Assembly (NCBI GenBank): GCA_913050175.1
Contig: CAJXAF010000001.1
Location: 1,126-65,125, forward strand
Reading direction: 5' to 3'
DNA length: 64,000 nucleotides
From: an uncultured bacterium
GTDB lineage: Bacteria > Omnitrophota > Gorgyraeia > Duberdicusellales > 4484-171
A model generated the notes under the pieces. It saw only the letters and a program-made list of their open reading frames with translations, was not told where the DNA came from and did not search any database. Shown one piece after another: positions 9,300-41,627 of the stretch. The number at the start of each line of letters is the position of its first letter. Position 1 is the first letter of the stretch. The position numbers and the translations under genes are program-made.

Positions 9300-10211
9300 A
9301 TGCCGATAAAATTAATTAAGAAATTATTTTTAAAAACACTACCTTTATTCTTGTCTTTGGTAATTGTTTTTAATCCCCTGGCCCAACCAGAACAAAAGAG
9401 CAGTAAAACTTTTCTTTGGGAAACTAAGAGTAACCAGAGTAAAATTTATATCCTCGGTTCAATTCACTTGGCCAAAGATAGTTTATACCCCTTAGATGAA
9501 AGAATTGAGAAAGCCTACCTTGAGTCTGATTACTTAGTTGTCGAAATAAATATAAACGATTTAGACCCAACAGAGATCCAAGAAAGGTTCTTAAAAGTCG
9601 GCATGTATTTAGACGGGGATACATTTAAAAATCATATTTCTTCTGAAACTTACGATCTTGCCGCCAAAAAGCTAGCCGATCTTGGTATAGACGTAGCTTA
9701 TATGGGGTTTTATAAACCTTGGTTTTTAGCTATTAGTTTAGTAACTCTTGAGTTGGTTAAATTAGGCTTTGATCCACAAAAAGGCATTGATCAGTATTTT
9801 TTAAATAAAGCTAAAGGCCAAAAACCAATCTTAGAACTTGAAAGCCTTAAATACCAATTAGATCTCTTTGGTTCATTTACTGACCAGGAGCAGGATTTGT
9901 TTCTTCTCTCTACTCTATCCGATTTAGATATTCTTCAAAGTGAAGTTGACAATATGTTTGCGACTTGGCAGAGGGGTGATGCCCAAGCTTTATCTGAACT
10001 CATGTATAAGAGTTTCGAAAAATATCCTCAAACTAAGTCTATATACTATAAGCTCTTTACCAAGAGAAACAAAGAAATGGTTTCTAAGATTGAGAAGTAC
10101 CTAGGGAGTGATAAGACTTACTTTGTGGTTGTCGGTGCCGGGCACCTAGTTGGTGATAAAGGGATCATAGCTTTATTGAGGGAGAAGGGCTACCAACTCA
10201 ATCAATTATAA
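9300..10211 (+). CDS. TraB/GumN family protein (secreted/periplasmic)
   Basis: Signal-like N-terminus, ILGSIHLAKDSLYPLD… and C-terminal VVVGAGHLVGDKGIIALLREKGY are characteristic of TraB/GumN (pfam01963-type) proteins. Confidence 0.75.
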   Translation: MPIKLIKKLFLKTLPLFLSLVIVFNPLAQPEQKSSKTFLWETKSNQSKIYILGSIHLAKDSLYPLDERIEKAYLESDYLVVEININDLDPTEIQERFLKVGMYLDGDTFKNHISSETYDLAAKKLADLGIDVAYMGFYKPWFLAISLVTLELVKLGFDPQKGIDQYFLNKAKGQKPILELESLKYQLDLFGSFTDQEQDLFLLSTLSDLDILQSEVDNMFATWQRGDAQALSELMYKSFEKYPQTKSIYYKLFTKRNKEMVSKIEKYLGSDKTYFVVVGAGHLVGDKGIIALLREKGYQLNQL

Positions 10212-10229: not shown

Positions 10230-10691
10230 ATGAGAAGAATTACTCTGATATGTTTATTTATGATTTTTAGTCTTACTATTGTGGGTAGTTTTGCTGAAAA
10301 CAGAATAAGTTCAGCCGAAGATGTAAGTAGTAAAAGGACTCTCATGATTGGAGATCCTATATACCAAACTACATTAAAAATCAATGACTCTTCTTATGAG
10401 TTTTATCACATCAAATTAAGGTATATTGGTATTGATAAAAATGTTGTGGAAGTAAGATATGAGTTCAAAGAGGATACCTCTGAAGCTGGGCCTAAACCAA
10501 AAGAAGAAGCCATGACTTTAATATTCCCCTTAGATGAGAAAGAAGAAACATATATAAGAATCCATCAACTCCCCAAACTCCCCCAAAAATTGACAGTACC
10601 GGCTACAACATTAGTACTTAAAGTAGATGATAGACACAATCATCTAGTTACGGTAGAAGAATTCAGAGATGAAAGTAAGTATCTAGATTAA
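10230..10691 (+). CDS. Hypothetical secreted protein
   Basis: N-terminal signal peptide (ITLICLFMIFSLTIVGSFA), RBS agggggaatg; no motifs. Confidence 0.5.
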   Translation: MRRITLICLFMIFSLTIVGSFAENRISSAEDVSSKRTLMIGDPIYQTTLKINDSSYEFYHIKLRYIGIDKNVVEVRYEFKEDTSEAGPKPKEEAMTLIFPLDEKEETYIRIHQLPKLPQKLTVPATTLVLKVDDRHNHLVTVEEFRDESKYLD

Positions 10692-10693
10692 TT

Positions 10694-10948
10694 ATGAGTA
10701 AGCAAACTAAAGATTCAAATATCTGGCGTTACTTTGAAAGCAAGTTAAAAGAGAGTCCTTTGGTCAAATTTATAAAGCAATACCCAAGGGTTTCTTTGGT
10801 AATTGGTATTATTTTATGCTTAGCCGTCTTAGCCCTGCCCCTATCCTTAAAAGATAAAATTCTCCTACCCCTAAGAGCTATAGCCGTTGGTCTTATAATT
10901 GCCTCAGCAGTCTTTATTGTAAAATTGAAAAAGCTGCCCCGTGATTAG
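10694..10948 (+). CDS. Hypothetical small membrane protein
   Basis: Two predicted TM helices; tightly packed after preceding ORF. Confidence 0.4.
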   Translation: MSKQTKDSNIWRYFESKLKESPLVKFIKQYPRVSLVIGIILCLAVLALPLSLKDKILLPLRAIAVGLIIASAVFIVKLKKLPRD

Positions 10949-11001
10949 ATTAAGTTTTTATTGTTGATTGACTGCTAATATTTGTAAGTTATAATGAAAT
11001 A

Positions 11002-11274
11002 ATGAGGATATTAACTTTACTAATATCTGTAATTATTGTTTTTAGCGGTTGCAGCAATAATTACTTAAGTAATTCCAAAACCACTCATCTCGCTCCTAGC
11101 CTTAGAGGTTTAAGCCAGAAAAATATCTACTCAAGATTTGGCGAGCCAACTAAAAAACAAATTTTGGTTGACTTTGATCGCCGTCGGGAAGTTTGGCACT
11201 ATCATCATAAGCATAAGCCATCTTTGAGAGTAGTTTTTTCTGATGGTTATGCAAGCAAGGTTTCATACCGTTAG
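11002..11274 (+). CDS. Hypothetical lipoprotein
   Basis: Lipobox-like LLISVIIVFSGCSNN at N-terminus. Confidence 0.45.
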   Translation: MRILTLLISVIIVFSGCSNNYLSNSKTTHLAPSLRGLSQKNIYSRFGEPTKKQILVDFDRRREVWHYHHKHKPSLRVVFSDGYASKVSYR

Positions 11275-11297
11275 ACTTTGGGAGGAGGGAGATAGTT

Positions 11298-11486
11298 ATG
11301 AAGAATTGTCCTTTTTGCGCTGAAGAAATTCTCTCAGAGGCCATAAAGTGTAAGCATTGCGGGGAATTTCTTTCAAAGAAACCAGCAGCAACATGGTACC
11401 AACGGCCATTTTCTATAATTGTTGCTTTTCTCTGTGTTGGCCCCTTGGCTTTGCCTTTGATTTGGTTTCATCCTAAGATTAGCTAA
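11298..11486 (+). CDS. Zinc-ribbon plus C-terminal TM small protein
   Basis: CPFC…CKHC zinc ribbon followed by hydrophobic helix; RBS ggaggaggg. Confidence 0.5.
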   Translation: MKNCPFCAEEILSEAIKCKHCGEFLSKKPAATWYQRPFSIIVAFLCVGPLALPLIWFHPKIS

Positions 11487-11622
11487 GCTTTAAAAATCAC
11501 TATAAGCCTGGTTGTCGTAATTGCCAGTTATTTTTTTGGTGTAGTATTTCTTAAGTCTTTAGCAGCAGTAAAACAATATTATCAGACGATAGATTCTTAT
11601 CTCAACTAATAAAGGTATAGAT

Positions 11623-12003
11623 ATGATTAGAAAAATACTTCTTGCTGATGACGATAAAGATACTGTTGATTTCCTAAAGAGGAGTTTAGAAAGAGAAGGT
11701 TTTGAGGTTAGCACTGCCTATGATGGTCTTTTAGCAAAAGAGGCTTTGGATAGTAATGAATTTGACCTTATAATTTTAGATTTGATTATGCCTGAATTCA
11801 ATGGCTGGCAGGTGTTGAGATGGTTAAGGCATGAAAAAAAACTTCTTACTCCGACTATTATACTTTCAGCAAAAGATCAAATAGCTGACATGCAAAAAAG
11901 TTATGATTTAAATGCTGATACTTATTTAATAAAACCAATTGATGTCAGCGATATTATCAGCGCAATAAAGATGTTATCTTCTTTGGGTTTTAAGAATAAT
12001 TAG
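11623..12003 (+). CDS. Stand-alone response-regulator receiver (CheY-like REC) protein
   Basis: ILLADDDKDTVDFLKRSLEREGFEV…DLIILDLIMPEFNGWQVL…SAKDQ…YLIKP: phospho-acceptor Asp pocket and conserved T/K positions; no output domain. Confidence 0.85.
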   Translation: MIRKILLADDDKDTVDFLKRSLEREGFEVSTAYDGLLAKEALDSNEFDLIILDLIMPEFNGWQVLRWLRHEKKLLTPTIILSAKDQIADMQKSYDLNADTYLIKPIDVSDIISAIKMLSSLGFKNN

Positions 12004-12042
12004 TTTTAGATAGACTTTAAAGAAATTCAAGGAATAAATTAT

Positions 12043-12411
12043 ATGCAACGTGATTCTGTAGATCGTAGGCGTTTTATTCATATTAAATTCCCCTTTACTG
12101 TTCACGTACGCCCTCTTGATAAACAGCCTATAGCTGCTTATTCCGAAGATATTAGCCAAGAAGGCATTAAAGTAACTATTAAGGACGAATTGGCAATAGG
12201 AAGTTTAACTGACTTGGAAGTTTTCATTCAGGCTGAACCTATTAAGTGCAAAGGAAAGGTCGTCTGGGTTAAAAAAAGAGATAGCAAGTATATTCAAGAT
12301 GAAATTTTTACTGACACAGGTATTGAATTTTATGATTTAAGTGAAAACAATAGTGCCTTAATCAAAGAACACATAAGTACTTTTAGTAAGACAAGCGGTT
12401 TTATTGAATAA
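12043..12411 (+). CDS. PilZ-domain protein (putative c-di-GMP receptor)
   Basis: Arg-rich N-terminal stretch DRRRFIHI, DISQEGI (DxSxxG) and GKVVWV β-strand motif; immediately downstream of REC gene. Confidence 0.6.
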   Translation: MQRDSVDRRRFIHIKFPFTVHVRPLDKQPIAAYSEDISQEGIKVTIKDELAIGSLTDLEVFIQAEPIKCKGKVVWVKKRDSKYIQDEIFTDTGIEFYDLSENNSALIKEHISTFSKTSGFIE

Positions 12412-12434
12412 AGCTTTAAGTAGGAGGTTATCGA

Positions 12435-12767
12435 ATGGGTTCACAAAGCTTAGGAGATCTGTTTAAGCACTATCTAAATCCTTTAGCTGATTTTCAATTT
12501 ACGCTTAATAACCCTGTATTTTGGCTATTGCTTTTTATATTATTTCTTTGCTTGTTACGATTTTGGGATATTAAGAAATCTTTATCTTTTTGTTTGGTTT
12601 CCGGTAGCATTCTTTTAGCTGCTACAAAAGTAGAAGAGATATTCGGTAATACAATTAAAGCCAGTGGTGAGCCCTTTGATCCTTTAATAGTTAGATTGGT
12701 TGCAATGATTTTTATTGCTATAGTTGTTTTGTACTACTGTTTTATCAAAACCGAGTCAGGGTATTAA
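12435..12767 (+). CDS. Hypothetical membrane protein
   Basis: Three hydrophobic helices; RBS aggagg. Confidence 0.45.
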   Translation: MGSQSLGDLFKHYLNPLADFQFTLNNPVFWLLLFILFLCLLRFWDIKKSLSFCLVSGSILLAATKVEEIFGNTIKASGEPFDPLIVRLVAMIFIAIVVLYYCFIKTESGY

Positions 12768-12867
12768 TTTGACAGGTAGCTGTTTTTATCTCTACAGTTT
12801 GTGACTTTCCTAAAGAAGTTAAATTGAAATAAAAATTTATATCAGTATAGATTCCAGAGGAGGGTTT

Positions 12868-13302
12868 ATGAGAATAAGCATTTTTTTATTTTTTTTATTT
12901 ACAGTTTGCAATAATTTAATATTTGCTGAAACAATAGTGCTTAACTCCGGAGAAGAAATCCAGGGGAAAATCGTTGAAAAAACCGATGCTTACATAAGAA
13001 TTTCAGATCCATCCGGTTTTCTCACGAAGCATGATAGTTCTGATATTAAAGATATTATCGATGATGCACCTGTATTTATAGAAGAAACCGAGCCTATTAG
13101 TGCAGCTGAGCCGATTTCTGACCCGGTAAGGCAAGAGCTTAGTGATAATTTAAAGAAAACTGAAAGCATGATTCAAGACACCTTAAAAGCTCTCTACCCC
13201 GCTCCTAAGAAAAGATCCGGTAACCAGGAAAAAGAGTCGGATAAGAGCAGCCTTCAAGAAGAAATAGACCGCAAATATAAGGGTTATGATAAATTTTACT
13301 AA
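12868..13302 (+). CDS. Hypothetical secreted protein with N-terminal β-motif shared with the 17916 protein
   Basis: Signal peptide then ETIVLNSGEEIQGKIVEKTDAYIRIS; RBS ggagga. Confidence 0.5.
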   Translation: MRISIFLFFLFTVCNNLIFAETIVLNSGEEIQGKIVEKTDAYIRISDPSGFLTKHDSSDIKDIIDDAPVFIEETEPISAAEPISDPVRQELSDNLKKTESMIQDTLKALYPAPKKRSGNQEKESDKSSLQEEIDRKYKGYDKFY

Positions 13303-13310
13303 AAATATCT

Positions 13311-13772
13311 ATGCGAGTTAGCGATCATGTAATTTACTGCCTTCCTCTTTCTTTAGCATTTTCCCTATATTTAAAATCACCGCTGCCAGGACTGTTATGT
13401 CTTGCTTCGGGAGTATTAATCGATGTTGATCATACTATTGAATATGTACAAGCATATGGTTTTAATTTAGGCTGCTTAAAGAAACTTCTTATAGCCACCC
13501 AGGTGAAATCTAAGAATAAAAAGATCTCTGATTTTAAGAAAATGTATCTTATTTTTCATAGTTTAGAATTTGTTATTATTTTTTGGATTATAGGTTTAGC
13601 TACTAAAAACCTATATTTTATAAGTGCAATTTCCGGGTATAGTCTACATATTTTACTTGATTTTATCGGTAACAGAGAGTATCCAAGATTTTATTGGATT
13701 ATCTGGCGGGCTAAAAATAAATTTTTGGTTGAAAAAATACTGCGTGTAGAAATCAATAAAGAACAATTATAG
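13311..13772 (+). CDS. Hypothetical polytopic membrane protein (possibly YdjM/DUF457-type metal-dependent hydrolase)
   Basis: Membrane helices with conserved His/Asp (IDVDHTIEY…HSLEF…HILLDFIGN); assignment tentative. Confidence 0.35.
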   Translation: MRVSDHVIYCLPLSLAFSLYLKSPLPGLLCLASGVLIDVDHTIEYVQAYGFNLGCLKKLLIATQVKSKNKKISDFKKMYLIFHSLEFVIIFWIIGLATKNLYFISAISGYSLHILLDFIGNREYPRFYWIIWRAKNKFLVEKILRVEINKEQL

Positions 13773-13808
13773 CAGTAATTTAGAAATATTAATTAAGAGG
13801 ATTCGGTT

Positions 13809-14797
13809 TTGAGAAAATTACTCATAGTTTGCTTGCTGCTTAGCTTAATTGCTTGTAATAGCCAAACCCCCCCAAACAGAAATCCAAACTCAATGTTAGT
13901 AAGGTAGAAAGCATTGGAGCAAAATCAGATGCTGGGGCAGATATTGCTCTCAATGGTATTATTTACGATGAAGGCCAGTCTTTAGCAATAATAAACGGTC
14001 AGATTTACTATCAAGGCGATTTCATAGGTCAGAATCAGATAATTGACATAGCAAGTGATTATGTACGGTTTAAGGCCAAAGATAGTGAGGATCATTCGAT
14101 AGTAAGACTATCTAGTGATCATAAAGAAGTAAGCGACCAGAAGTATTCGAAAGAAAAGTCTGTCAAAAAGGAGGAATCACGCCAATATCTTTTTGCCAAA
14201 GCTAAGCTTATAGATACAGAAGATTATCTTATCTTTATACCTGAGAAAACTAATTTTAACGATACCTATCCTTTAATTGTATTTTTTACTCCTGATGCCG
14301 ACACCAAAGGAACACTAAAGCATTTTAAGGATCTTGCTCAAAAATATAAGTGGCTGCTTTTTATATCTAAAGAGTTTCATATTGGTGTTGATATGGCTAA
14401 GGTAATTACTGATTTAGCTCTAACAATCGAAAGTTTATCAGAGAGCCTTCCAATAGATAAGTCTAAAATAATAGTAAGTGGATTTTCAGCCGGAGCAATG
14501 GGGGCTCATTTTTTTTCTTATGCAGAGCCTAAACTTATCTCAGCAATCATAATTAATAGTGGAACAATTCACCAGGATCTCAAAGGTGTAGTAACAGGTC
14601 ATCCAAAGTCAAAACGAGTAGTTTTCCTGGCGAGTCCGACCGATTATGGATACAAGAGCATGCTAGAGGATAAGCGATTTTTAGACAGCCTTGGTTGGAA
14701 GACTAAATGGATAGAATTTAAAGGTGGCCATAGACTCGCTCCTAAAGATATATATGAGAAGGCTTTTGCCTGGCTAAAAATTCAGTTTAGAGAGTAA
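13809..14797 (+). pseudogene. Lipoprotein α/β-hydrolase (esterase/PHB-depolymerase-like) interrupted by a frameshift at a C7 homopolymer; intact reading would give ~329 aa
   Basis: TTG start 8 nt after SD aagagg gives signal peptide MRKLLIVCLLLSLIAC (lipobox) that stops at 13905-13907. Downstream frame is open from 13862 to 14797 with no ATG until 14393. It encodes GFSAGAMGAH (GxSxG nucleophile elbow) and esterase-like C-terminus. One extra C in the C7 run 13867-13873 fuses both frames. Confidence 0.65.
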
Positions 14798-14884
14798 AAA
14801 GACCATAAAGGCATTAGGTTTTAAAACCTTTTCTACTTTTGAGCTCTATGCTATAATTTTCTAGTTCTCTATCATAAATTAAAA

Positions 14885-15775
14885 ATGATAATGTCTGCAG
14901 AAAAGCATAAATTAGAAGGAAATTTAGCCAATTGTCTTATAATTGGGGCACAGAAGTGTGCAACCTCAAGTTTATTCCATTATCTTAGCTTCCATCCCAA
15001 TGTCATTGCCTCAGCCCATAAAGAGCTTAATTTCTTTAATGAGGAGCTTTGTTGGGATAAAGGGCTTAATTGGTACAAATCTAATTTTGTAGGCAAAGCT
15101 AAAATTTATCTCGAAGCCTCACCTAGTTACACAAACTATCCCTTATATAAAGGCGTAGCCAAACGAATGCACTCTTTAATCCCCCAGGCAAAATTGATTT
15201 ATATAGTAAGAGACCCGATAGAGAGGTTAATTTCCCAATACTTAGATAGAGTCAAAGGCGGTCAGGAAACTCTTGCAATCGAAGATGCTTTTGTTGAGGG
15301 AGAAGATTCTGTATATATTGATTTTAGCAAGTATTATATGCAGTTAGAGCAGTTTTTAAATTATTATCCTAAAGAATCGTTTCTGATTTTAACAGCCGAA
15401 GAATTAAAAAATAAGCGCAGAGAAACTTTAAAGAGAGCATTTCGGTTTTTAAATATTGATGATGATTTTTATTGTGATGAGTTTTCCGACTTAATAAATG
15501 TTTCACGTGGTAAGTTAAAACGGAAAAAACCAAGGAGAATTGTTCGTTATTTTGCCCATGGCCCCAAGAAAAAGACTTCTTTTAGCAAATTAGGCTATGC
15601 AATGATCCCTAAAATCTTAAAGGACAAGGCTTTAGAATCAACAAAAACAGGGCAAAAGGTCTATCGACCTCTTTTATCCGAAGATCTAAGAAATAAGTTA
15701 ATCGAAGCCCTTAGGGCTGATATAGCCAAGTTAAGGGAGTTCAGCGGATGCAGTTTTAGCCAGTGGTGTCTGTAA
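14885..15775 (+). CDS. PAPS-dependent sulfotransferase (heparan-sulfate 3-O-sulfotransferase-like family), cytoplasmic
   Basis: CLIIGAQKCATSSLFHYLSFHP (5'-PSB P-loop) and LIYIVRDPIERLISQY (3'-PB motif); no signal peptide. Confidence 0.7.
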   Translation: MIMSAEKHKLEGNLANCLIIGAQKCATSSLFHYLSFHPNVIASAHKELNFFNEELCWDKGLNWYKSNFVGKAKIYLEASPSYTNYPLYKGVAKRMHSLIPQAKLIYIVRDPIERLISQYLDRVKGGQETLAIEDAFVEGEDSVYIDFSKYYMQLEQFLNYYPKESFLILTAEELKNKRRETLKRAFRFLNIDDDFYCDEFSDLINVSRGKLKRKKPRRIVRYFAHGPKKKTSFSKLGYAMIPKILKDKALESTKTGQKVYRPLLSEDLRNKLIEALRADIAKLREFSGCSFSQWCL

Positions 15776-15809
15776 TTTTTTTATGTTATAAATTAATAAA
15801 GGGGGGATT

Positions 15810-16235
15810 ATGGATAAGGGAATGAACATTATAAGCAAAATTACTAACTGGGTAAAGGCAATCTCTTCTCCGGGTAACTTAAGAAGTATATATGCAAAAT
15901 ATTCTACCCCTGTGTTTTTTCTCTTTGGTTTTTACATCCTTTACTGTTTATGCTTGATGCAGTTTATTATTTCTAAGTATAAATCTGCTGTTAATAATAA
16001 AGAAGCTTTTCTAGTAGTTTTCAAAGCAGCTGTTGGTAATGCCGTAATATTTTCAATTGGGTTAGCTATTTTGAGTTTTTGTCCTCAAACTAAGGCGGCT
16101 TCCCTCTTAAGTAGTTTTTTAGATGAACACTTTCCTTCAGCAATTATGCCCTTTATAATATCCCTAGGATGTATTATAATAGCATTTGTCTGGGCAGGTT
16201 TAACTAAAATCATTTCTACCAATAAAGATAAGTAA
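15810..16235 (+). CDS. Hypothetical polytopic membrane protein
   Basis: 3-4 TM helices, RBS aaaggggg. Confidence 0.45.
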   Translation: MDKGMNIISKITNWVKAISSPGNLRSIYAKYSTPVFFLFGFYILYCLCLMQFIISKYKSAVNNKEAFLVVFKAAVGNAVIFSIGLAILSFCPQTKAASLLSSFLDEHFPSAIMPFIISLGCIIIAFVWAGLTKIISTNKDK

Positions 16236-16267
16236 TATTTATCTTTATTGTAAGGGAATATCAATAT

Positions 16268-16486
16268 ATGACTCTATCAAAGTTAATGACAGTTCTGGGA
16301 TTTCTGGTGATTCTAACCGGGGTTCATAAGCTTTATTGCTCAATTAAGCCTGAGTCTGAGAGATGTTCTGTTTCTCCTGGCGAGGAGCCTTTTGAGGGAG
16401 CGACAGTAAATGAAAAGCTTTACACCTCAGGAGTTCGTTTTATTATATATGGATTTCTTATTCAATTGTTGAGGTTAGTAGTTTAA
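16268..16486 (+). CDS. Small two-TM membrane protein, paralog A
   Basis: …LTGVHKLYCSIKPESE…SGVRFIIYGFLIQLLRLVV; paralogous to ORF 16833..17063. Confidence 0.5.
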   Translation: MTLSKLMTVLGFLVILTGVHKLYCSIKPESERCSVSPGEEPFEGATVNEKLYTSGVRFIIYGFLIQLLRLVV

Positions 16487-16538
16487 ATCATACAAAAAAA
16501 TAGATTTAAGATATATAATTTATGAGGAGGAAGAGATA

Positions 16539-16811
16539 ATGAAATGTTGTCAGTGTAATAGCCCTAAAGTGTCTAACGGGAGAATTTTTAACCAAATAGA
16601 TTATATTGCTCCAGCAGCCTATTTTAGGCCCAATGGTTTAAGGACCTTTGCGATATTAGACACTAATGTTAGGATAAAAAATATTTTTTATAGTTGTTTG
16701 GATTGTGGATTTGTCTGGGGTGAGATTGACCCAGTTAAACTAAAGAAAGTAATAATTGAAAAAGCAACTGATAGCACTAAAGAAAGGCTAGATTTAAACA
16801 AAAAACAATAG
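16539..16811 (+). CDS. Zinc-ribbon small protein
   Basis: MKCCQCNSPK… CLDCGF two Cys pairs; strong RBS gaggaggaag. Confidence 0.5.
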   Translation: MKCCQCNSPKVSNGRIFNQIDYIAPAAYFRPNGLRTFAILDTNVRIKNIFYSCLDCGFVWGEIDPVKLKKVIIEKATDSTKERLDLNKKQ

Positions 16812-16832
16812 TTTAATAATAAAAGGAGGATC

Positions 16833-17063
16833 ATGGACAATGTCATAGATTATTCAACTTACCTTACAATATTGGGTCTTCTTACAACCTTAACAGGTAT
16901 TTATAAGCTACATCACTCAGTTAAAACTAATCCAGCCACTGAAATAACCTATCATGCTAAAGAGCCACATGATGCTGCAATAATCGATTATCATCAAGCA
17001 AGGTCAGGATTACGATTTACTATTTATGGTTTCTTAATACAAATGCTTACGGTAATATTTTAA
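16833..17063 (+). CDS. Small two-TM membrane protein, paralog B
   Basis: …LTGIYKLHHSVKTNP…SGLRFTIYGFLIQMLTVIF; RBS aaaggagg. Confidence 0.5.
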   Translation: MDNVIDYSTYLTILGLLTTLTGIYKLHHSVKTNPATEITYHAKEPHDAAIIDYHQARSGLRFTIYGFLIQMLTVIF

Positions 17064-17116
17064 GTGTTAAGTTATTTATCAGAAGAAAATATACTTCTAG
17101 TAAATTCAAAGTTCAG

Positions 17117-17395
17117 ATGAGATGCAATATTTTTTATCTTATTGCTGGTTTTGCCCTTCTTGTCAGTGCAGCTCTAACTAATTTACCGTCAAAAGAAGTA
17201 ATAAATCTTATAAATCCTGATAATCTATATAGTTTTCTTTCAAGGTTTCTTATGGATTCGGCAAAAACACCTTTAACCTGGGTGGGAATAGTTTTGCTAT
17301 TTTTTAGTTTTCGTGAACCAAAAGCTAAGATAAAAAAAGTAAAACTAGAAGCTAACGACAATCAAGGTAAAGATTTAAATAAATTAAAGACATAA
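17117..17395 (+). CDS. Hypothetical membrane protein
   Basis: Two hydrophobic helices, Lys-rich tail. Confidence 0.4.
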   Translation: MRCNIFYLIAGFALLVSAALTNLPSKEVINLINPDNLYSFLSRFLMDSAKTPLTWVGIVLLFFSFREPKAKIKKVKLEANDNQGKDLNKLKT

Positions 17396-17414
17396 AATAC
17401 TAAGAGGAGTTTTT

Positions 17415-17822
17415 ATGGATGGTTCTAAAAAAAGTGTGATCTTGATTATAATTGCTCTTTTAGTTGCCGGTATAATTGGATTAAGTTTCTATAGATCCCA
17501 GCGAGCTCCGACTATAGCAGTTGAGAAGATCTTAAGCTTTTGGCGCCCAGGTTATCATAATCTTGTTGGGGAGTACTGGCATAAAGATTCACGATATGAG
17601 ACTTTGTATAATGTAAGGCAATATAAAATTCTTAAATCAGAAATTAGAAAAGACCAAGCCAGAGTTATAACTAGAGTTAATTATATTACCGGCCATAAGT
17701 TGAAATTAGAAAATATATTTACCTTTCTCTTGAGCAAATCTAAAGGAAAGTGGAAGGCTTATAGGTACTATAAGGGTTTTAAAGATACTGAGACGAAAAA
17801 CAGAAGGGCCTTCTTGAATTGA
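17415..17822 (+). CDS. Hypothetical N-terminally anchored protein
   Basis: RBS aagaggag; single N-terminal TM. Confidence 0.45.
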   Translation: MDGSKKSVILIIIALLVAGIIGLSFYRSQRAPTIAVEKILSFWRPGYHNLVGEYWHKDSRYETLYNVRQYKILKSEIRKDQARVITRVNYITGHKLKLENIFTFLLSKSKGKWKAYRYYKGFKDTETKNRRAFLN

Positions 17823-17830
17823 GTTTATCT

Positions 17831-17914
17831 ATGACTGATACAAAAGTAAGAAAAATATTAGTAGTCGACGATGGGGAGGAGAACCTTAAGCTTTTAAATG
17901 AGAGAGGTATTTAA
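17831..17914 (+). pseudogene. 27-codon remnant resembling the N-terminus of a response-regulator receiver domain
   Basis: MTDTKVRKILVVDDGEENLKLLNERGI* matches the β1-α1 start of REC domains (ILVVDD…) then terminates. Confidence 0.3.
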
Positions 17915-17915
17915 A

Positions 17916-18920
17916 ATGAAACAAAGAAGATATTTGTTTTTAATTTTTTCTTTAGCATTTTCCTTCTATTTTTGCGGAAGTTCTTTTGCTGATATAGTTT
18001 TTCTAAAAAATGGCCGGGAATTAGAAGGGCAAATAATCAAGGAAGATGAATTAAAAATTTGGTTGCTTACTTATGGAAATGCTAAGATAGGCATAAAGAA
18101 ACGAGAAATATTAAAAATTGAACCTCAGGAATTTATAGCCAAAGATAGCAAGGCTCGTGGCGATACCACAAAGTCTAAAGGTCAAGCTAAAGGAAGCAAA
18201 AAAAGTAAGTACAATGTTATCTCTACTGAGGTTGTGTATGATGATATGGCCCGTAGCGATAAGAAAGATATTTATACTAAAGATTACTCAATCAGCGGCA
18301 CAACCTACCAACAAGTGCGCTTTAAAGACGGTAAAGCTATAGGTAAACACGTAGAATACAATAAAGACGGCACAGTTAAGTTGCAAGTCAGTATGTTAGG
18401 TAGTAAAAAAGAAGGAAAATTTGTCAGTTATTATAAAGGGGGTAGTATTAAGTATGAGGGTGAGTATGCGGGAGACTTAAAATCTGGTCTGCATAAGCAT
18501 TATTGGCCAAATGCTAGATTAAAATCTAAAATAACTTATAGATTAGATAAAAAGCATGGTTTAGCCCAAACCTTTTATGAAAGCGGAGAGTTGTTTGAGG
18601 AAGCTTATTATGTTGACGGCAAAAAGAGCGGAGAACAAAAACAATACTATAAAAGTGGTAAAGTATTAGCAGAGATGACTTATTTTAATGATGAGCCTCA
18701 AGCTAAGGGCAAAAAATATTATGAGAACGGTAAAACTCAAGAAGAGTATTTTTATGATCTCGGCGTAACAAAAGCTTACTTTGAAAGTGGAAAAATTAAG
18801 AGTGTAATTAACTTTAAGAAACTAAAGTATATTGAGTATGATGTTGAAGGTAATATCATTTATAATGGTGAACTGACCGATGAAATGGCAAATAAAGTTA
18901 AAGATCAAGATGACGAGTGA
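17916..18920 (+). CDS. Secreted MORN/YwqK-type repeat protein
   Basis: Signal peptide MKQRRYLFLIFSLAFSFYFCGSSFA (start chosen at second Met, SD gagagg) followed by DIVFLKNGRELEGQII motif. C-terminal half has ~23-aa repeats G-x-Y…G-x-x-x-G-x-Y (KEGKFVSYYKGGSIKYEGEY…, YYVDGKKSGEQKQYYKSGK…, KKYYENGKTQEEYFY). Confidence 0.6.
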   Translation: MKQRRYLFLIFSLAFSFYFCGSSFADIVFLKNGRELEGQIIKEDELKIWLLTYGNAKIGIKKREILKIEPQEFIAKDSKARGDTTKSKGQAKGSKKSKYNVISTEVVYDDMARSDKKDIYTKDYSISGTTYQQVRFKDGKAIGKHVEYNKDGTVKLQVSMLGSKKEGKFVSYYKGGSIKYEGEYAGDLKSGLHKHYWPNARLKSKITYRLDKKHGLAQTFYESGELFEEAYYVDGKKSGEQKQYYKSGKVLAEMTYFNDEPQAKGKKYYENGKTQEEYFYDLGVTKAYFESGKIKSVINFKKLKYIEYDVEGNIIYNGELTDEMANKVKDQDDE

Positions 18921-18945
18921 ACTATCTTAAAGGGAGGGATTAATC

Positions 18946-19116
18946 ATGGATTATTTTCAAGAAGCTGCAAACTGGTTTACTGAGGCTGAACATCTTTTCT
19001 TTAAGGACGAAACTCAGGCAAAGCAATTATTTTGTTCTGCCATGAAGAACCTCACCCTAGGCATGGGTGAAATCAAGACTTTATTAGAAAAAAAAGCCTC
19101 TCAAGATAACAACTAA
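18946..19116 (+). CDS. Small 56-aa hypothetical protein (below ORF-track cut-off)
   Basis: ATG 7 nt after SD aagggaggg; fills the 207-nt gap before the PilZ gene. Confidence 0.35.
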   Translation: MDYFQEAANWFTEAEHLFFKDETQAKQLFCSAMKNLTLGMGEIKTLLEKKASQDNN

Positions 19117-19127
19117 GGATTTTTTAG

Positions 19128-19481
19128 ATGAAAGAAAGAAGACATTTTCCCAGACTGGATATAACTAAGATAGACGTTTCTTGGACAAAAGATGATAATA
19201 ACAGAGAAACTGACAAGGTAAAAAACATTGCCGGCGGTGGGATTCGTTTAATATTGGATAAGGGTAATGTTAAAATCGGTGACATAATTAATTTAAAATT
19301 TAGTTTACCTAGCGGAGATGAAATTACTTCAAAAGGGAAAGTTATTTGGGTTAGAGCTTTTGAGATACTCGGTAATAATACTGAAGTCATCAATGAAGCT
19401 GGAATTGAATTCATTGATATCAGCCAAAAAGATAAATTTCTCATTAATCAATACATATTTTCCTTAATGCCACCAAAATAA
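19128..19481 (+). CDS. PilZ-domain protein
   Basis: RRHFPR (RxxxR), NIAGGGI (D/NxSxGG), GKVIWV. Confidence 0.8.
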   Translation: MKERRHFPRLDITKIDVSWTKDDNNRETDKVKNIAGGGIRLILDKGNVKIGDIINLKFSLPSGDEITSKGKVIWVRAFEILGNNTEVINEAGIEFIDISQKDKFLINQYIFSLMPPK

Positions 19482-19494
19482 AAAGGAGGGCAAA

Positions 19495-19953
19495 ATGCTT
19501 GCAAAAAAATTCGCTTTAGGATTTGGTCTCGCTATTATATTACCGATGATGATCCATTACGGTGTAAGCACATTTGTGGAACAACCTAAATGGGGAGATT
19601 ATCAGATAAGGGATTATTATCAACGCCATAAAGATGCCTCTCCGGAAGAGAAAAAAGAACTTCAAGCCAAAAGAGATCGCTTGCATGACGAGAGGAAAGT
19701 GAAAGAAAAACATTTTCAAAAGTATTTGTTCTTTGCAGCCATACCTCTAGGGATAACTGCAATTATTATTGGAGCTTTCCTTCCCATACAAGCAATTGGA
19801 ACTGGACTTATGTTTGGGGGCATCTTTAGCGTCTGCGATGGGTATATAAATTATTGGTCAGAATTAAGTGATGGTTTAAGATTCATCTCCTTGGTATTTG
19901 CATTTATCGTACTCATAGTTATTGGCTACAAAAAACTTGAAAGCAAAGCCTAG
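19495..19953 (+). CDS. Hypothetical membrane protein
   Basis: RBS aaaggaggg; 3 TM helices. Confidence 0.5.
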   Translation: MLAKKFALGFGLAIILPMMIHYGVSTFVEQPKWGDYQIRDYYQRHKDASPEEKKELQAKRDRLHDERKVKEKHFQKYLFFAAIPLGITAIIIGAFLPIQAIGTGLMFGGIFSVCDGYINYWSELSDGLRFISLVFAFIVLIVIGYKKLESKA

Positions 19954-20011
19954 CAGTCTAATCTAGCTGATATTCAGGCAACCAAAACCTTTAGTGAGAG
20001 ACAAAAATCAC

Positions 20012-20039
20012 TTGCCTAAAATAGACCCTATGCTATAAT
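20012..20039 (+). promoter_or_regulatory. Putative sigma70 promoter for tRNA-Phe (TTGCCT-16-TGcTATAAT extended -10)
   Basis: ttgcct at 20012-17, tgctataat at 20031-39, ~60 nt upstream of tRNA start. Confidence 0.5.
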
Positions 20040-20101
20040 TTTTCTCTGTTGCATTGAAAATTAAGTGTTATTTTTTCTATTAACGAAATCTACCGCTAGA
20101 T

Positions 20102-20177
20102 GGCGAGGTAGCTCAGACGGTAGAGCGAGGGACTGAAAATCCCTGCGTCAGGGGTTCGATTCCCTTCCTCGCCACCA
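20102..20177 (+). tRNA. tRNA-Phe (anticodon GAA), CCA encoded
   Basis: Cloverleaf: acceptor GGCGAGG/CCTCGCC, D-arm GCTCAGACGGTAGAGC, anticodon loop CTGAAAA, T-arm GGTTCGATTCC, 3' ACCA. Confidence 0.92.
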
Positions 20178-20181
20178 TAAT

Positions 20182-20210
20182 AAAGGAAGGCTTAAACGCC
20201 TTCCTTTGCT
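20182..20210 (+). terminator. Intrinsic terminator after tRNA-Phe
   Basis: 10-bp perfect stem aaaggaaggc/gccttccttt with 6-nt loop followed by T-rich tract. Confidence 0.7.
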
Positions 20211-20282
20211 ATTTCTGCATACCCATATTAAGCTTAATCGCAGGCCTACCATTTTTTAATACCTATGATATAATGCCCTAAT

Positions 20283-21332
20283 TTGGGTAACAAGATACTT
20301 AAAATGAAAACTAATAAACCTATTATTTTAATCTTATGTGGTGGGCAATCCTTGCGTCTTTGGCCGTTTAGTCAATACAAAAGCAAGAATTTCCTTGATG
20401 TTTTTGGCTTCTCGCCTTTAGAATTAACCATAAAACGCTTTTTAAAACTGGCCCCAAAAGAAAATATCTTCTTAGTTGCCAATAAGTACGAGAAGAAACA
20501 ATTACTTAAATTAAAATCAATAAATAAAAAAAATATATTTTTTGAACCAGAGAGCAAAAATACAGCAGCAGCGGTTTTACTTTCCTTGATTAATTTAAAA
20601 AAATACAGCAGGCAAGCAGTCATTATCACCCCGGTAGATCATCTTATTACTAAGGAAAAACTTTTTCTTTCAGCTGTAAGAAAAGCTCTGCTTCAGGCAA
20701 AGAGTAATTTTATTGCTACCTTAGGTATAAAACCGGACAGGCCTGATCCCAATTTTGGGTATATCCAGGCAGGAAAGCAGGTAAGCAAGACAGGAGTTTA
20801 CTCTGTTAAGCGTTTTATTGAAAAGCCAAGCCAGAAGAGAGCAAAGAAGCTAATTAGTTCCGGGAAGTGTTTTTATAATAGCGGGATGTTTATTGGAAAA
20901 ATAGAGACCATTTTAGCTGAATATGAGAAGTATTACAGTGACTATAAGCACTTTGCTAAGTCTATTAAAGCAAAGAAAGTTGTGGCTTTGTATAAAAGAA
21001 TAAAAAATACTCCTTTTGATAAGGCTATAATGGAGAAAACCAAAAAAGTAATAGTGATTAGGGGCGATTTTTCCTGGAAGGATTTTGGCACTTGGTTATC
21101 AATATATGAGGTTTTGGCTAAAGATAAAAAAGCAAATGCTTCTCGCGGTAAGGCTTTATTGCTGGATAGCAGCAATAACTTAATCTATCTCGATAATTTA
21201 AAGAAGAAAGTAATAGCTTTAGGGCTTAAAGATATTTTTTTAATTGATACCAAAGACTACACCCTCCTTACAACTCGCTCTCATATAGATAGCTTAAAGC
21301 TTGTATTGAAAAAATATGTTAATTTTTTATAA
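20283..21332 (+). CDS. Sugar-1-phosphate nucleotidyltransferase (mannose-1-phosphate guanylyltransferase-like, N-terminal domain only)
   Basis: ILCGGQSLRLWPFSQYKSKNFL matches the GxGxRLxP sugar-nucleotidyltransferase P-loop of ManC/GMP enzymes; start could alternatively be Met at 20304. Confidence 0.7.
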   Translation: MGNKILKMKTNKPIILILCGGQSLRLWPFSQYKSKNFLDVFGFSPLELTIKRFLKLAPKENIFLVANKYEKKQLLKLKSINKKNIFFEPESKNTAAAVLLSLINLKKYSRQAVIITPVDHLITKEKLFLSAVRKALLQAKSNFIATLGIKPDRPDPNFGYIQAGKQVSKTGVYSVKRFIEKPSQKRAKKLISSGKCFYNSGMFIGKIETILAEYEKYYSDYKHFAKSIKAKKVVALYKRIKNTPFDKAIMEKTKKVIVIRGDFSWKDFGTWLSIYEVLAKDKKANASRGKALLLDSSNNLIYLDNLKKKVIALGLKDIFLIDTKDYTLLTTRSHIDSLKLVLKKYVNFL

Positions 21333-21358
21333 CTTTCTCTCATTAATCCTTTAAAGTT

Positions 21359-22288
21359 ATGAAGTACTTTTATGGTCCAGTCCCTTCAAGGAGATTAGGT
21401 TTTTCTTTAGGCGTAGATTTTTTTGCCGATAAGTCATGTACCTTTGACTGTCTTTACTGTCAATTGGGAAAAAGCACCAAGCATATAAGTAAGCGGATAA
21501 ATAATTTTGATTTAAAAGCCTTTAAATCCCAGCTGAAAGAAATTTTTAAATCTAAACCAAGAATAGACTATATAACAATTTCCGGTTCCGGCGAGCCGAC
21601 CTTGCAGATAGGTCTAGATAAGATAATTAAAATTATTAAAAAAGAAACTTCTCATAAATATTCTGTTTGTGTAATAACTAATTCTTCACTTATCCATCGA
21701 AAAAGTATAAGGAGAGAGCTTTTGGCTGCCGATATAATAATACCTTCGCTTGATGCAGCTTATGATAAGTCTTTTAAAAAAATTAATCGTCCCGGAAAAG
21801 GAACTAGCTTAACAAAAATTATCAGTGGCTTAATTGCTTTACGTAAAGAGTTTAGGGGAGCAATTTGGCTGGAGATAATGCTAGCTAAAGGTATTAATGA
21901 TTCACTTAAAGAAGCCAAGAGGTTTAAAGAACTTATTAAAAAAATCAAGCCTGATAAGGTACAGTTAAATCTTCCTGTAAGGCCTTCAGATTATAAAGTT
22001 TCTTTACCGGATAAAGAAAAAATAAAGAAAATAAAAGCTATATTAAGTGAGGCAGCAGAGGTTGTATCAGATTTTCGCTCCAAACGCAGAGCCCCTAAAA
22101 TTGATAAAGACTTAACTGAAGCGTTAATGAGCTATTTAAAGGTTAGGCCAGCCAGTATAGAGGACTTAATAAGCTCTTTAGGAAAAACCAGAAAAGATAC
22201 CCTAAAGCAATTAAATACTCTGATTGCTAAAAAAGTAGTTCGCTTAAGTATTCATAAGAATAAAAAATACTACCGTTTAAATGATTAA
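21359..22288 (+). CDS. Radical SAM protein (COG0731-like)
   Basis: GPVPSRRLGFSLGVDF…CTFDCLYCQ CxxxCxxC cluster-binding motif. Confidence 0.75.
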   Translation: MKYFYGPVPSRRLGFSLGVDFFADKSCTFDCLYCQLGKSTKHISKRINNFDLKAFKSQLKEIFKSKPRIDYITISGSGEPTLQIGLDKIIKIIKKETSHKYSVCVITNSSLIHRKSIRRELLAADIIIPSLDAAYDKSFKKINRPGKGTSLTKIISGLIALRKEFRGAIWLEIMLAKGINDSLKEAKRFKELIKKIKPDKVQLNLPVRPSDYKVSLPDKEKIKKIKAILSEAAEVVSDFRSKRRAPKIDKDLTEALMSYLKVRPASIEDLISSLGKTRKDTLKQLNTLIAKKVVRLSIHKNKKYYRLND

Positions 22289-23640: not shown

Positions 23641-23664
23641 TTTAAAAAACTTAGGAGGGTAGGT

Positions 23665-24009
23665 ATGAAAAAATATAGTTTTTTTATAATTTTTTTATTT
23701 TCAATGTTTTTTTTATCAGCTTGCGTACAAATGCGTGATTATGTAGGTGAAAGAGAAGGTGCTTACGGTTTGATGAGAAAAAAGACTTTCGGTGAGGGCG
23801 AGGAAGTTAAGAAGGATTATTATGTAATTAATGACGGTGATGGGTTAGTCATCGGTGATACCAAGAATGAAGTAATTAAAAAGATCGGTCTTCCTGATGA
23901 AGTTAAGACTACTTTAGAAGGCTATGAGACTTGGGTTTATCCTCAAAGAGGCGATATTTTTTATTTTAGCGGAGATAGGCTTAATAGGTGGGATGAGCTT
24001 ACCGAATAA
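23665..24009 (+). CDS. Hypothetical lipoprotein
   Basis: FFLSACVQ lipobox; RBS ggagggtagg. Confidence 0.5.
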   Translation: MKKYSFFIIFLFSMFFLSACVQMRDYVGEREGAYGLMRKKTFGEGEEVKKDYYVINDGDGLVIGDTKNEVIKKIGLPDEVKTTLEGYETWVYPQRGDIFYFSGDRLNRWDELTE

Positions 24010-24177
24010 AATAGCCTGTTTTTTAAGCGGAGTTAGAAAAGCTTCGATTTAATCGCACCAAAAATTCTTTATCCTTTCGTTAAAAAACCTTTATACCAAT
24101 AAAAAAACTTTCTACCGGAAAGCGAAAGGAATCCAGGCAAAAATATCCCAACCGGTATTTGGTAAAAATTTCTAAAT

Positions 24178-41519: not shown

Positions 41520-41627
41520 TTTCCAGGGGCTTATTTAAGTTAAGATAAGTTTGTGGCTTATATAAATTTAGTTTACCGGTGGTTTTCTCAAAGAGAGGTC
41601 AAAATGAGTAAAAACGGAGGTGACAAA

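Follow-up and report, generated by a model that had tools for sequence, protein, structure and literature searches.

Stand-alone PilZ receptors of c-di-GMP include DgrA/DgrB of Caulobacter and MapZ/PA4608 of Pseudomonas. These proteins, and single-domain receivers likewise, work by binding partner proteins. Leptospira surface proteins form paralogous families, among them those with the Lepto_7_Nterm domain (NF047433) and the LIC20035 family adhesin (NF033566). Genomic islands and integrative elements can be associated with tRNA genes, and tRNA-targeting integrases place the island 3' of the tRNA. Features recalling each of these systems are found in ~10 kb of small genes for membrane, secreted and signalling proteins from an uncultured marine Omnitrophota bacterium. 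In the window (the whole 64-kb stretch of DNA analysed) this block spans positions 10230-19953, and a tRNA gene comes after its last ORF. The features are as follows.

B01, 10230-10691, + strand: secreted all-beta protein of an orphan family, 153 aa (signal-like N-terminus)
B02, 10694-10948, + strand: two-TM protein, 84 aa (two hydrophobic segments)
B03, 11002-11274, + strand: small putative lipoprotein (VFSGC), 90 aa (sequence inspection and hydrophobicity)
B04, 11298-11486, + strand: zinc-ribbon and TM protein, 62 aa as called (weak Zn_ribbon_3 match)
B05, 11623-12003, + strand: stand-alone CheY-like receiver (REC), 126 aa (PF00072, 92 bits)
B06, 12043-12411, + strand: stand-alone PilZ protein, 122 aa (PF07238, 48 bits)
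B07, 12435-12767, + strand: two-TM protein of an orphan family, 110 aa (orthologues)
B08, 12868-13302, + strand: secreted protein with a Lepto_7_Nterm-like N-terminal domain, 144 aa (NF047433)
B09, 13311-13772, + strand: membrane protein, weakly YdjM-like, 153 aa (DxDH, HSLEF and HxLLD motifs)
B10, 13809-14797, + strand: lipoprotein alpha/beta-hydrolase (esterase), frameshifted here (LIAC lipobox, GFSAG motif)
B11, 14885-15775, + strand: PAPS-type sulfotransferase, 296 aa (Sulfotransfer_1, 50 bits)
B12, 15810-16235, + strand: three-TM protein, 141 aa (hydrophobic TM segments)
B13, 16268-16486, + strand: two-TM mini-protein, 72 aa, paralogue of B15 (paralogy)
B14, 16539-16811, + strand: cytosolic CxxC...CxxC zinc-ribbon protein of an orphan family, 90 aa (orthologues)
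B15, 16833-17063, + strand: two-TM mini-protein, 76 aa, paralogue of B13 (orthologues)
B16, 17117-17395, + strand: TM protein, 92 aa (coding potential best in its own frame)
B17, 17415-17822, + strand: N-terminally anchored protein, 135 aa (orthologues)
B18, 17898-18920, + strand: secreted MORN_2-repeat protein with a Lepto_7_Nterm-like N-terminus, 340 aa (PF07661, 64.7 bits)
B19, 18946-19116, + strand: small cytosolic protein, 56 aa (L104 orthologue)
B20, 19128-19481, + strand: stand-alone PilZ protein, 117 aa (PF07238, 49.5 bits; cut-off 22.5)
B21, 19495-19953, + strand: three-TM protein of a large uncharacterised family, 152 aa (homologue search)
tRNA-Phe(GAA), 20102-20177, + strand: ancestral landmark (tRNA call)

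The bounds of the block, from the start of its first ORF to the end of its last ahead of tRNA-Phe, agree with a preliminary description of the locus, as does its run of short genes, although the count of ~22 ORFs is reduced to 21. All are on the + strand, densely spaced with gaps of 2-136 nt, and encode 56-340 aa (median 122 aa; 18 of 21 do not exceed 153 aa). By the Kyte-Doolittle scale, 13 contain a hydrophobic segment. With the esterase, which has a LIAC lipobox, and B15, added as the weaker paralogue of B13, the ORFs with a signal, lipobox or TM segment come to 15 of 21, in keeping with the earlier claim that most have one. No terminator-like hairpin was found between block genes before the one at 20181-20208, just after tRNA-Phe.

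It is extremely improbable that many of these small ORFs are spurious over-calls of non-coding sequence in an AT-rich genome. Such over-calling would fit the lack of a Pfam or NCBIfam family for most of them, the absence of a detected homologue for B16 (which retrieved only itself among the top 150 matches of an exhaustive search and is missing from L104 and L092; L numbers denote sequences compared with the window), and codon scores of 0.03-0.38, somewhat below those of long genes (0.31 +/- 0.06). However, for each of the 21 ORFs its own frame gives the best score, GGAGG-type ribosome-binding sites precede many of them, and 18 have homologues elsewhere. Moreover, in every orthologue pair tested (15 genes) pN was 0.13-0.48 against a saturated pS of 0.64-1.07. 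As pN lies far below pS, the block ORFs are real genes under purifying selection, and at the level of sequence the over-calling explanation is already refuted for all but B16, B03 and B11; orthologues of the latter two were not found in relatives. The same pN/pS pattern is seen for aroC, leuA and TraB. Identity to the nearest relative is 28-76% for block proteins and 41-86% for flanking genes, with B14, B15 and B19 conserved to the degree of aroC.

The closest relative, Omnitrophota MAG GCA_016939345.1, keeps at least 13 of the 21 block genes in order on two contigs, with TraB-B01-B02-B04-REC on L009 and B10-B12-B13-B14-B15-B17-B18-B19-B20 on L104. These contigs stop within the block, leaving B06-B09 unobserved and the continuity of L009 with L104 assumed. 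A second relative (L092/L093) has 13-14 block genes, again in order: aroC-o52-B01-B02-lipoprotein-REC-PilZ-B07-B08-B09-B13-B14-B15-B18...B20. Two others are credited with the first seven genes; as listed, L010 holds B01 to B07 and L089 holds REC-PilZ-B07-B08. In the distant L102 (49% GC), PilZ, small TM genes and B14 precede tRNA-Phe, which is followed by rSAM-AlaRacN-LactB. tRNA-Phe has an equivalent relative position in L005, L013 and L102. In the more distant L004, L005, L013 and L015, the flanks and tRNA-Phe are kept around different small genes in the TraB-to-tRNA-Phe interval, and the region is therefore more fluid than its flanks. A comparison of presence and absence thus finds the block syntenic in close relatives and replaced in distant ones. 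The term "lineage-specific" used earlier applies at clade level only, since most genes have syntenic orthologues in relatives. Of the synteny and annotated functions that the preliminary description had named as counter-evidence, synteny was found in close relatives, and an annotated function for none of the 21 genes.

The block is probably a vertically inherited neighbourhood of one clade of (mostly marine) Omnitrophota, bounded by the aro/TraB genes on one side and by an ancestral tRNA-Phe on the other. The interval would turn over slowly through the gain and loss of single genes, and in the window lineage gains may be limited to the sulfotransferase, B16 and B21. Its lesions appear minor, comprising the in-frame stop of B04 and an esterase poly-C tract of variable length.

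The preliminary description had also considered an old or degraded accessory block. A genomic island at tRNA-Phe that lost its integrase and has since ameliorated to host composition is a very improbable origin, and synteny already contradicts it as far as sequence can tell. The block does resemble tRNA-associated islands and integrative elements in being a poorly annotated multi-gene run that adjoins a tRNA gene, the gene content of the interval varies among more distant relatives, and the window has one frameshift and one nonsense codon. However, the block lies 5' of tRNA-Phe, the wrong side for a tRNA-targeting integrase. Domain searches detected no integrase or transposase in the block, and the 3' end of tRNA-Phe is not repeated within the 64 kb, where other repeats are at chance level. 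The k-mer scan gave a tetranucleotide z of 0 to 1.3, a host-like composition without deviation; on both recombinases and composition the earlier account holds. Searches for defence systems (PADLOC) and phage proteins (tblastn) gave matches solely through the generic REC domain and the MORN repeats, respectively. The nearest relatives are collinear with the block and diverge from it to the same extent as in housekeeping genes, and the distant L102 already links tRNA-Phe with a small-gene cluster that includes B14 and PilZ. Finally, the esterase frameshift is limited to one assembly. In the window it falls at a C7 tract (13867-13873), so the earlier reading of a frameshifted lipoprotein esterase holds there. 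In five further assemblies from this population the tract is C8 and the 329-aa lipoprotein is intact; the intact gene with C8 is seen in L001 and L097-L101. A frameshift private to one assembly is no sign of decay.

REC-PilZ-B07 is the triad conserved best in the neighbourhood. The REC and PilZ pair reported earlier is confirmed. Similar to CheY-like receivers, B05 is a single domain with all phospho-acceptor residues present by inspection (D9/D10, D53, S82 and K104), and its orthologues are 62% (L009), 53% (L092), 51% (L010) and 49% (L089) identical. B06 and B20 resemble stand-alone PilZ receptors in being single-domain proteins above the Pfam cut-off; B20 had been taken for a REC stub and is instead the second PilZ domain of the block. 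Both depart from the canonical c-di-GMP motif at one residue each. B06 keeps DxSxxG but has RxxxH rather than RxxxR (RRRFIH, against RRRFIR or RRRSLR in orthologues), whereas B20 keeps RxxxR but has NxAxxG (NIAGGG) rather than [D/N]xSxxG. Orthologues of B06 are found in L010 (57%), L089 (52%) and L092 (50%), and those of B20 in L104 (37%) and, as a remnant, L092 (40%). In contrast to PilZ and CheY systems, where it would belong to the flagellar, chemotaxis or cellulose-synthase machinery, the fixed neighbour here is the orphan two-TM protein B07, which invariably comes next after REC-PilZ. Its orthologues (L089 49%, L010 48%, L092 45%) keep the stretch LLRFWDIKKS.SF.

Ahead of this triad, B01 orthologues stand directly after TraB or o52 (L009 48%, L010 41%, L092 28%; pN 0.33, pS 0.82). 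A single-sequence AF2 model of B01 has eight strands (pLDDT 75.5) and found no match in the PDB by Foldseek. B02, without a Pfam family above cut-off, has orthologues at the equivalent position in L009 (44%), L010 (42%) and L092 (38%). B03 is missing from L009. Its positional counterparts in L010 (7040-7354) and L092 (2180-2503) have a lipobox and resemble it in a C-terminal motif, and neither BLAST nor phmmer detected homology to them. In B04 an in-frame TAA (11484-11486) interrupts a homologous frame that runs on to 11609. The orthologues in L009 and L010 have 104-107 aa and are 65% identical; L098 B04 is also called as 62 aa.

B08 and B18 share a Lepto_7_Nterm-like N-terminal domain. As in the Leptospira families, a signal peptide is followed by a domain of ~55 aa, and in B18 by MORN_2 repeats as in the LIC20035 family adhesin; the MORN-repeat protein was correctly recognized in the preliminary description. 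The matches are below the NCBIfam cut-offs (B08 against NF047433, E 3.3e-9; B18 against the adhesin family, E 1.4e-12; 36-37 bits vs 43 and 47 vs 250), and Leptospira belongs to another phylum. B08 orthologues are 42% identical in both L092 and L089, and those of B18 37% (L104) and 35% (L092). In relatives this N-terminal domain is also found fused to TraB. B09 matches Pfam YdjM only at E 0.019; an exhaustive search places it in a large family, with a 45% orthologue in L092.

The esterase B10 gives a borderline match to Abhydrolase_2, has a weak likeness to PHA depolymerase and is 57% identical to its L104 orthologue. The sulfotransferase B11, of the PAPS type as described earlier, aligns with heparan-sulfate 3-O-sulfotransferases (PDB 3rnl, 3bd9 and 1zrh; E 1e-16 to 1e-18), and both the 5'-PSB (QKCATSS) and 3'-PB (RDPIERLIS) motifs are conserved in it. 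Unlike these enzymes, it is a lone lineage-restricted gene. It is missing between B10 and B12 of L104 and from L092, and looks like a single-gene addition outside the conserved backbone. B12 has an L104 orthologue (28%, phmmer E 6e-15) and weakly matches a 120-aa protein of L092.

As proposed earlier, paralogous two-TM mini-proteins surround a zinc-ribbon protein: B13 and B15 (37% identity, E 3.5e-10) flank B14. B14 matches nothing in Pfam, NCBIfam or the PDB and is the most widely kept gene of the block (L104 70%, L092 64%, L102 54%). Orthologues of B13 are 58% (L092) and 55% (L104) identical, with pN 0.28 and pS 0.87; those of B15 are 71% (L104) and 63% (L092). A single H/R polymorphism of B15 occurs in L090 and L091. 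B17 orthologues reach 46% in L095 and 38% in L104, and its poor AF2 model was set aside. B19 has an L104 orthologue of 76% identity over 49 aa (pN 0.135, pS 0.90). B21 homologues number hundreds, also in unrelated contexts (L094, L096), and L104 has a pilin-like gene where B21 would stand.

The backbone B01-B02-(B04)-REC-PilZ-B07-B08-B09-B13-B14-B15-B18-B19-B20 might be a single dedicated and undescribed Omnitrophota surface or adhesion machine, controlled by c-di-GMP and phosphorylation and possibly serving host attachment. Consistent with this, at least 13 genes keep their order despite saturated synonymous sites, spacing is close without internal terminators, B14, B15 and B19 match aroC in conservation, B18 is similar to a MORN adhesin, and relatives have a pilin-like gene after B20 and a GGDEF-HD gene upstream. 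Type-4a pili, moreover, are reportedly common in Omnitrophota and have been proposed to function there in attachment (PMC10066038). Such a machine nevertheless seems unlikely. The unrelated ilv/leu/aro/prepilin-peptidase neighbours are equally syntenic, and conserved order alone is therefore no proof of shared function. PilZ genes are spread over the genome, with five scattered through the window (~1 per 13 kb), and B03, B04, B10-B12, B16, B17 and B21 were gained or lost one by one. Neither a known machine of such composition nor interaction evidence was found, and structure prediction gave no usable lead. The phrase "lineage-specific envelope/signalling module" is therefore apt as a description of a clade-restricted, ordered and constrained set of envelope, REC and PilZ genes, without implying one functional module.

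As a vertically inherited neighbourhood, the block would mostly encode envelope proteins, including secreted beta proteins, lipoproteins, mini-proteins with one to three TM segments and an adhesin-resembling MORN-repeat protein. Interleaved with these are the putative cytosolic signalling parts, namely the orphan receiver of CheY type, the two PilZ proteins, each of one domain, and small proteins that are helical or carry a zinc ribbon. The genes may be co-transcribed as a few long units. REC and PilZ would relay phosphorylation and c-di-GMP signals to the adjoining membrane proteins, with the products of the block probably working at the cell envelope or surface of these Omnitrophota.

The interval 10230-19953 was found to contain 21 ORFs (B01-B21), all on the + strand and separated by gaps of 2-136 nt. 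The encoded proteins range from 56 to 340 aa (median 122 aa, n = 21), and a scan of the block for further ORFs of at least 100 aa left none beyond these. A signal sequence, lipobox or transmembrane (TM) segment is present in 15 of the 21, which bears out the preliminary description of a run of small envelope and signalling ORFs before tRNA-Phe. The features discussed most are as follows.

11623-12003 (+), B05, receiver (REC) protein
12435-12767 (+), B07, two-TM protein
13809-14797 (+), B10, candidate esterase
14885-15775 (+), B11, sulfotransferase
16268-16486 (+), B13, two-TM mini-protein
16539-16811 (+), B14, CxxC...CxxC protein
16833-17063 (+), B15, two-TM mini-protein
17898-18920 (+), B18, MORN_2 repeat protein
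19128-19481 (+), B20, PilZ protein
20102-20177, tRNA-Phe(GAA), 3' of the block
20181-20208, strong terminator-like hairpin directly after tRNA-Phe

No terminator-like hairpin was found between the block genes before the one that follows tRNA-Phe. Together with the single strand and the tight spacing, this suggests that the block is transcribed as a few long units. Promoter-like sites occur at chance level (49 found versus 46.9 +/- 7.1 expected), and transcription units are therefore not definable from them.

With a codon model built from the long genes in the window, the annotated frame gave the highest score for each of the 21 ORFs, and GGAGG-type ribosome-binding sites precede many of them. 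For each block gene tested, orthologue pairs compared by the Nei-Gojobori method gave pN values of 0.13-0.48 against saturated pS values of 0.64-1.07. The same pattern is found in housekeeping and flanking genes (pN/pS of 0.24/0.84 for aroC, 0.14/0.80 for leuA and 0.32/0.83 for TraB), and B14, B15 and B19 are constrained as strongly as aroC. Identical or near-identical contigs (99.96-100%) are found in Tara Oceans and other marine assemblies; three of these population variants (L001, L090 and L091) are 1-3 SNPs away from the window, too few for within-population dN/dS to be usable.

Relatives were identified by a TraB-alignment scan with one genome per species, and by an exhaustive phmmer search with the concatenated late-block ORFs combined with context look-ups. 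The best non-self homologue of TraB is 54% identical, and the named relatives are Candidatus Omnitrophota MAGs. The closest by housekeeping proteins is relative Z (GCA_016939345.1, Candidatus Omnitrophota Zod_Metabat.1444), with identities of 86% for ilvC, 81% for leuA and 66% for aroC. Relative R (contigs L092/L093) shows 80% for leuA and 66% for aroC, and relative S (contig L102, 49% GC) is more distant.

Gene order in relatives (identity in brackets; o52 is a gene of the upstream flank)
Relative Z, L009: aroC, o52, TraB, B01 (48%), B02 (44%), B04 (65%), REC (62%), contig end
Relative Z, L104: B10 (57%), B12 (28%), B13 (55%), B14 (70%), B15 (71%), B17 (38%), B18 (37%), B19 (76%), B20 (37%), pilin-like gene
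Relative R, start: aroC, o52, no TraB, B01 (28%), B02 (38%), B03-like lipoprotein, REC (53%), PilZ (50%), B07 (45%)
Relative R, after B07: B08 (42%), B09 (45%), B13 (58%), B14 (64%), B15 (63%), B18 (35%)
Relative R, after B18: six other small genes, B20 remnant (40%), SUI1, PIF1 helicase
L010: TraB, B01, B02, lipoprotein, extra TM gene, B04, REC, PilZ, B07, contig end
L089: REC, PilZ, B07, B08
L095: B17-like gene, REC, Lepto_7_Nterm protein
Relative S: PAS-GGDEF-HD, TPR, PilZ, several small TM or secreted ORFs, B14 (54%), then tRNA-Phe
Relative S, past tRNA-Phe: two glycosyltransferases, Sortilin-like protein, rSAM-AlaRacN-LactB

These comparisons are the decisive evidence on the status of the block. 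Its backbone is common to the sub-clade of the window, and the linkage of tRNA-Phe to a cluster of small genes, B14 and PilZ among them, is ancestral. In four other distant relatives (L005, L013, L015 and L004) the flanks and tRNA-Phe are kept, with only 2-4 different genes between TraB and the tRNA. Collinearity of the block in the nearest relatives goes against its reading as accessory DNA; in distant ones it is replaced. Contig L104 of relative Z lacks B11 and B16 between the genes that flank them here, and a pilin-like gene stands in place of B21. The only apparent gains of the window lineage are B11, B16 and B21; B03 and B04 are patchy. B16 is also the sole block ORF without a homologue among the top matches listed by the exhaustive phmmer search. 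Two further observations concern gene neighbours in these genomes: a prepilin-type pilin-like protein (L104, 4254-4835) directly follows the B20 PilZ orthologue, and a PAS-GGDEF-HD protein, a c-di-GMP turnover enzyme (L102, 3536-6037), borders the small-gene cluster of relative S.

The preliminary description had offered two readings, an old or degraded accessory block at a tRNA or a lineage-specific envelope and signalling module. The first is rejected. Scans of the 21 ORFs against Pfam, NCBIfam and PHROG revealed no integrase or transposase domain. The final 15-25 nt of tRNA-Phe do not recur in the 64 kb, even with up to 3 mismatches allowed, and the repeats that were found are chance-like only. 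Integrases that target tRNA genes leave their cargo 3' of the tRNA; the block sits 5' of tRNA-Phe. Its GC content is 0.31-0.36 within a window range of 0.30-0.42, and 5-kb windows in the block have tetranucleotide distances of z 0 to 1.3. The earlier remarks on host-like composition and on missing integrases and transposases proved correct. Sporadic presence in close relatives was not seen, with collinear blocks in L009/L104, L092/L093 and L010, and divergence of the block is comparable to that of flanking genes as judged from orthologue pairs. Matches to phages by tblastn were limited to MORN repeats, and PHROG matches to unannotated families. In every respect tested, the block lacks the marks of a tRNA-linked island; it is core, constrained and clade-specific content. 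The second reading holds only as the description of a clade-conserved neighbourhood: the unrelated ilv, leu, aro and prepilin-peptidase neighbours are equally syntenic, and conserved order alone is therefore no proof of joint function.

The window as a whole has about 35% GC, a steadily positive GC skew and nearly all genes on the + strand. Practically all credible genes within 1-41987 run on the + strand, and the sole clear minus-strand cluster lies at 42066-44910. The strongest tetranucleotide deviation of the window (z = 3.35) falls at 20001-25000, just downstream of the block and not over it, in a segment with ManC, radical-SAM, Ala_racemase_N and metallo-beta-lactamase genes.

Among the signalling genes, B05 is a full CheY-type receiver (PF00072, 92 bits over its whole length) whose translation keeps D9/D10, the phospho-acceptor D53, S82 and K104. 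A PADLOC 'PDC-M60B/C' pair was rejected as two parts of one defence candidate, since it is the generic REC domain in B05 that produces both calls. B06 and B20 match PilZ (PF07238) at 48.0 and 49.5 bits (cut-off 22.5). B20 had been taken for a REC stub, a call that was discarded in favour of this second PilZ domain. When the RxxxR and [D/N]xSxxG ligand-binding motifs were checked, each protein was found to depart at one canonical residue. B06 (RxxxH) contains RRRFIH, whose last Arg is replaced but is retained in orthologues, and DISQEG; B20 (NxAxxG) contains RRHFPR and NIAGGG, with Ala for Ser, where the orthologue has NVSEGG. The best-conserved signalling unit is REC-PilZ-B07, present in five genomes. 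Stand-alone single-domain PilZ genes (Pfam 40-54 bits) were found at five places in the window:

12043-12411, PilZ gene (B06)
19128-19481, PilZ gene (B20)
32675-33025, PilZ gene
34810-35178, PilZ gene
46864-47217, PilZ gene

Three of these genes, and a borderline c-di-GMP-I riboswitch, lie elsewhere in the window; PilZ is a genome-wide feature and not a hallmark of the block. The source genome is probably small. Five stand-alone PilZ genes in 64 kb, among housekeeping genes, make an unusually dense set of candidate c-di-GMP receptors. The riboswitch match at 41348-41474 (+) scores 35.1 bits against an Rfam gathering score of 35 (E 0.004); some 80 nt downstream of it begins an orphan ORF of 144 aa (41553-41987), for which Pfam has no family.

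B13 and B15 are paralogous (37% identity, E 3.5e-10) and flank B14, confirming the reported arrangement of two-TM mini-proteins around a zinc-ribbon protein. For B01, B07, B13/B15, B14 and B19 no relative was found in Pfam, NCBIfam or the PDB. A single-sequence structure prediction of B01 gave a plausible beta protein with no fold match in the PDB (E >= 0.03, TM <= 0.3); the model of B17 was discarded as poor (pLDDT 61, pTM 0.24). A metagenome scan with B07 patterns yielded nothing beyond the same population and a single contig of 1.4 kb. B09 is weakly YdjM-like, and B09 and B21 each fall in a large, uncharacterised family of hundreds of proteins.

Searches of Pfam, NCBIfam and the PDB upheld the zinc-ribbon, MORN-repeat, REC-PilZ and sulfotransferase assignments. 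B04 combines a zinc ribbon with a TM helix. B11 matches Sulfotransfer_1 at 50.3 bits (cut-off 22), its relatives of known structure are heparan-sulfate 3-O-sulfotransferases (E 1e-16 to 1e-18), and by inspection it carries a 5'-PSB motif (QKCATSS) and a 3'-PB motif (RDPIERLIS). The MORN_2 protein B18 shares with B08 an N-terminal domain (about 55 aa) akin to Lepto_7_Nterm (NF047433), with scores of 36.8 and 36.3 bits, respectively (E about 1e-9), under the cut-off of 43. In some relatives, the TraB/GumN protein (356-369 aa; L005 298-1368, L015 8798-9907) carries this same Lepto_7_Nterm-like domain as an additional N-terminal part, about 60 aa long, behind the signal peptide; the TraB of the window (9300-10211, 303 aa) is without it.

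B10 is a lipoprotein with a LIAC lipobox, a GFSAG elbow and a putative alpha/beta-hydrolase core. Its Abhydrolase_2 scores of 24.3 and 22.8 bits are borderline against a cut-off of 23, its match to NF050058 (PHA-depolymerase-like, E 3e-8) is far under the cut-off, and no PDB sequence matched. The frameshift described in this gene is real in the window, at a C7 tract (13867-13873) directly after the lipobox cysteine. It is private to this assembly, since five other same-population assemblies (L001/L097, L098, L099, L100 and L101) have C8 and an intact protein of 329 aa. The C7 tract, the sole C or G run of at least 7 in the 64 kb (0.14 C-runs expected), reflects either a consensus error or slipped-strand variation, and poly-C slippage could act as phase variation of this surface lipoprotein. 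In B04, an in-frame TAA (11484-11486) cuts the protein to 62 aa, a call also made in assembly L098. The TAA points to a recent nonsense mutation, because the frame stays open for 40 codons past it (11484-11609) and still resembles the C-terminal half of the 104-107-aa orthologues.

A working scheme can be proposed from these sequence features. The block would be expressed as a few long transcripts, with most products at the envelope. The orphan receiver B05 and PilZ may bind the adjacent two-TM protein B07 or another membrane partner and so signal phosphorylation and c-di-GMP status to the envelope, B13-B14-B15 may form a small membrane-tethered zinc-ribbon complex, and B08, the adhesin-like B18 and the esterase B10 would be surface or periplasmic proteins. 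A bolder proposal, which is improbable, is that the conserved backbone is an undescribed Omnitrophota envelope or attachment device under c-di-GMP and phosphorelay control, with a poly-C tract that phase-varies the esterase. Its strongest parts would be the REC-PilZ-B07 triad and the B13-B14-B15-(B19)-PilZ group, with constraint like that of core enzymes, and it would couple small membrane proteins and a MORN-repeat surface protein to signal input. Omnitrophota are reported to encode type-4a pili commonly, and these are proposed to mediate attachment (PMC10066038). Any tie between such attachment and the block is speculation.

Parts of the block belong or relate to known families, namely CheY-like receivers, PilZ receptors, HS-3-OST-type sulfotransferases, alpha/beta-hydrolases, MORN_2 and Lepto_7_Nterm surface proteins. 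Such a block is nothing out of the ordinary for a poorly sampled phylum, and no long-standing question is opened or settled by it. The main value of the result is as a correction, in that dense small 'hypothetical' genes beside a tRNA are easily misread as an island. It also yields a short list of strongly conserved small families without a Pfam or NCBIfam model (B01, B07, B13/B15, B14 and B19). Beside these orphan families, the recurrent REC-PilZ-two-TM triad is a second lead for Omnitrophota envelope biology or c-di-GMP signalling.
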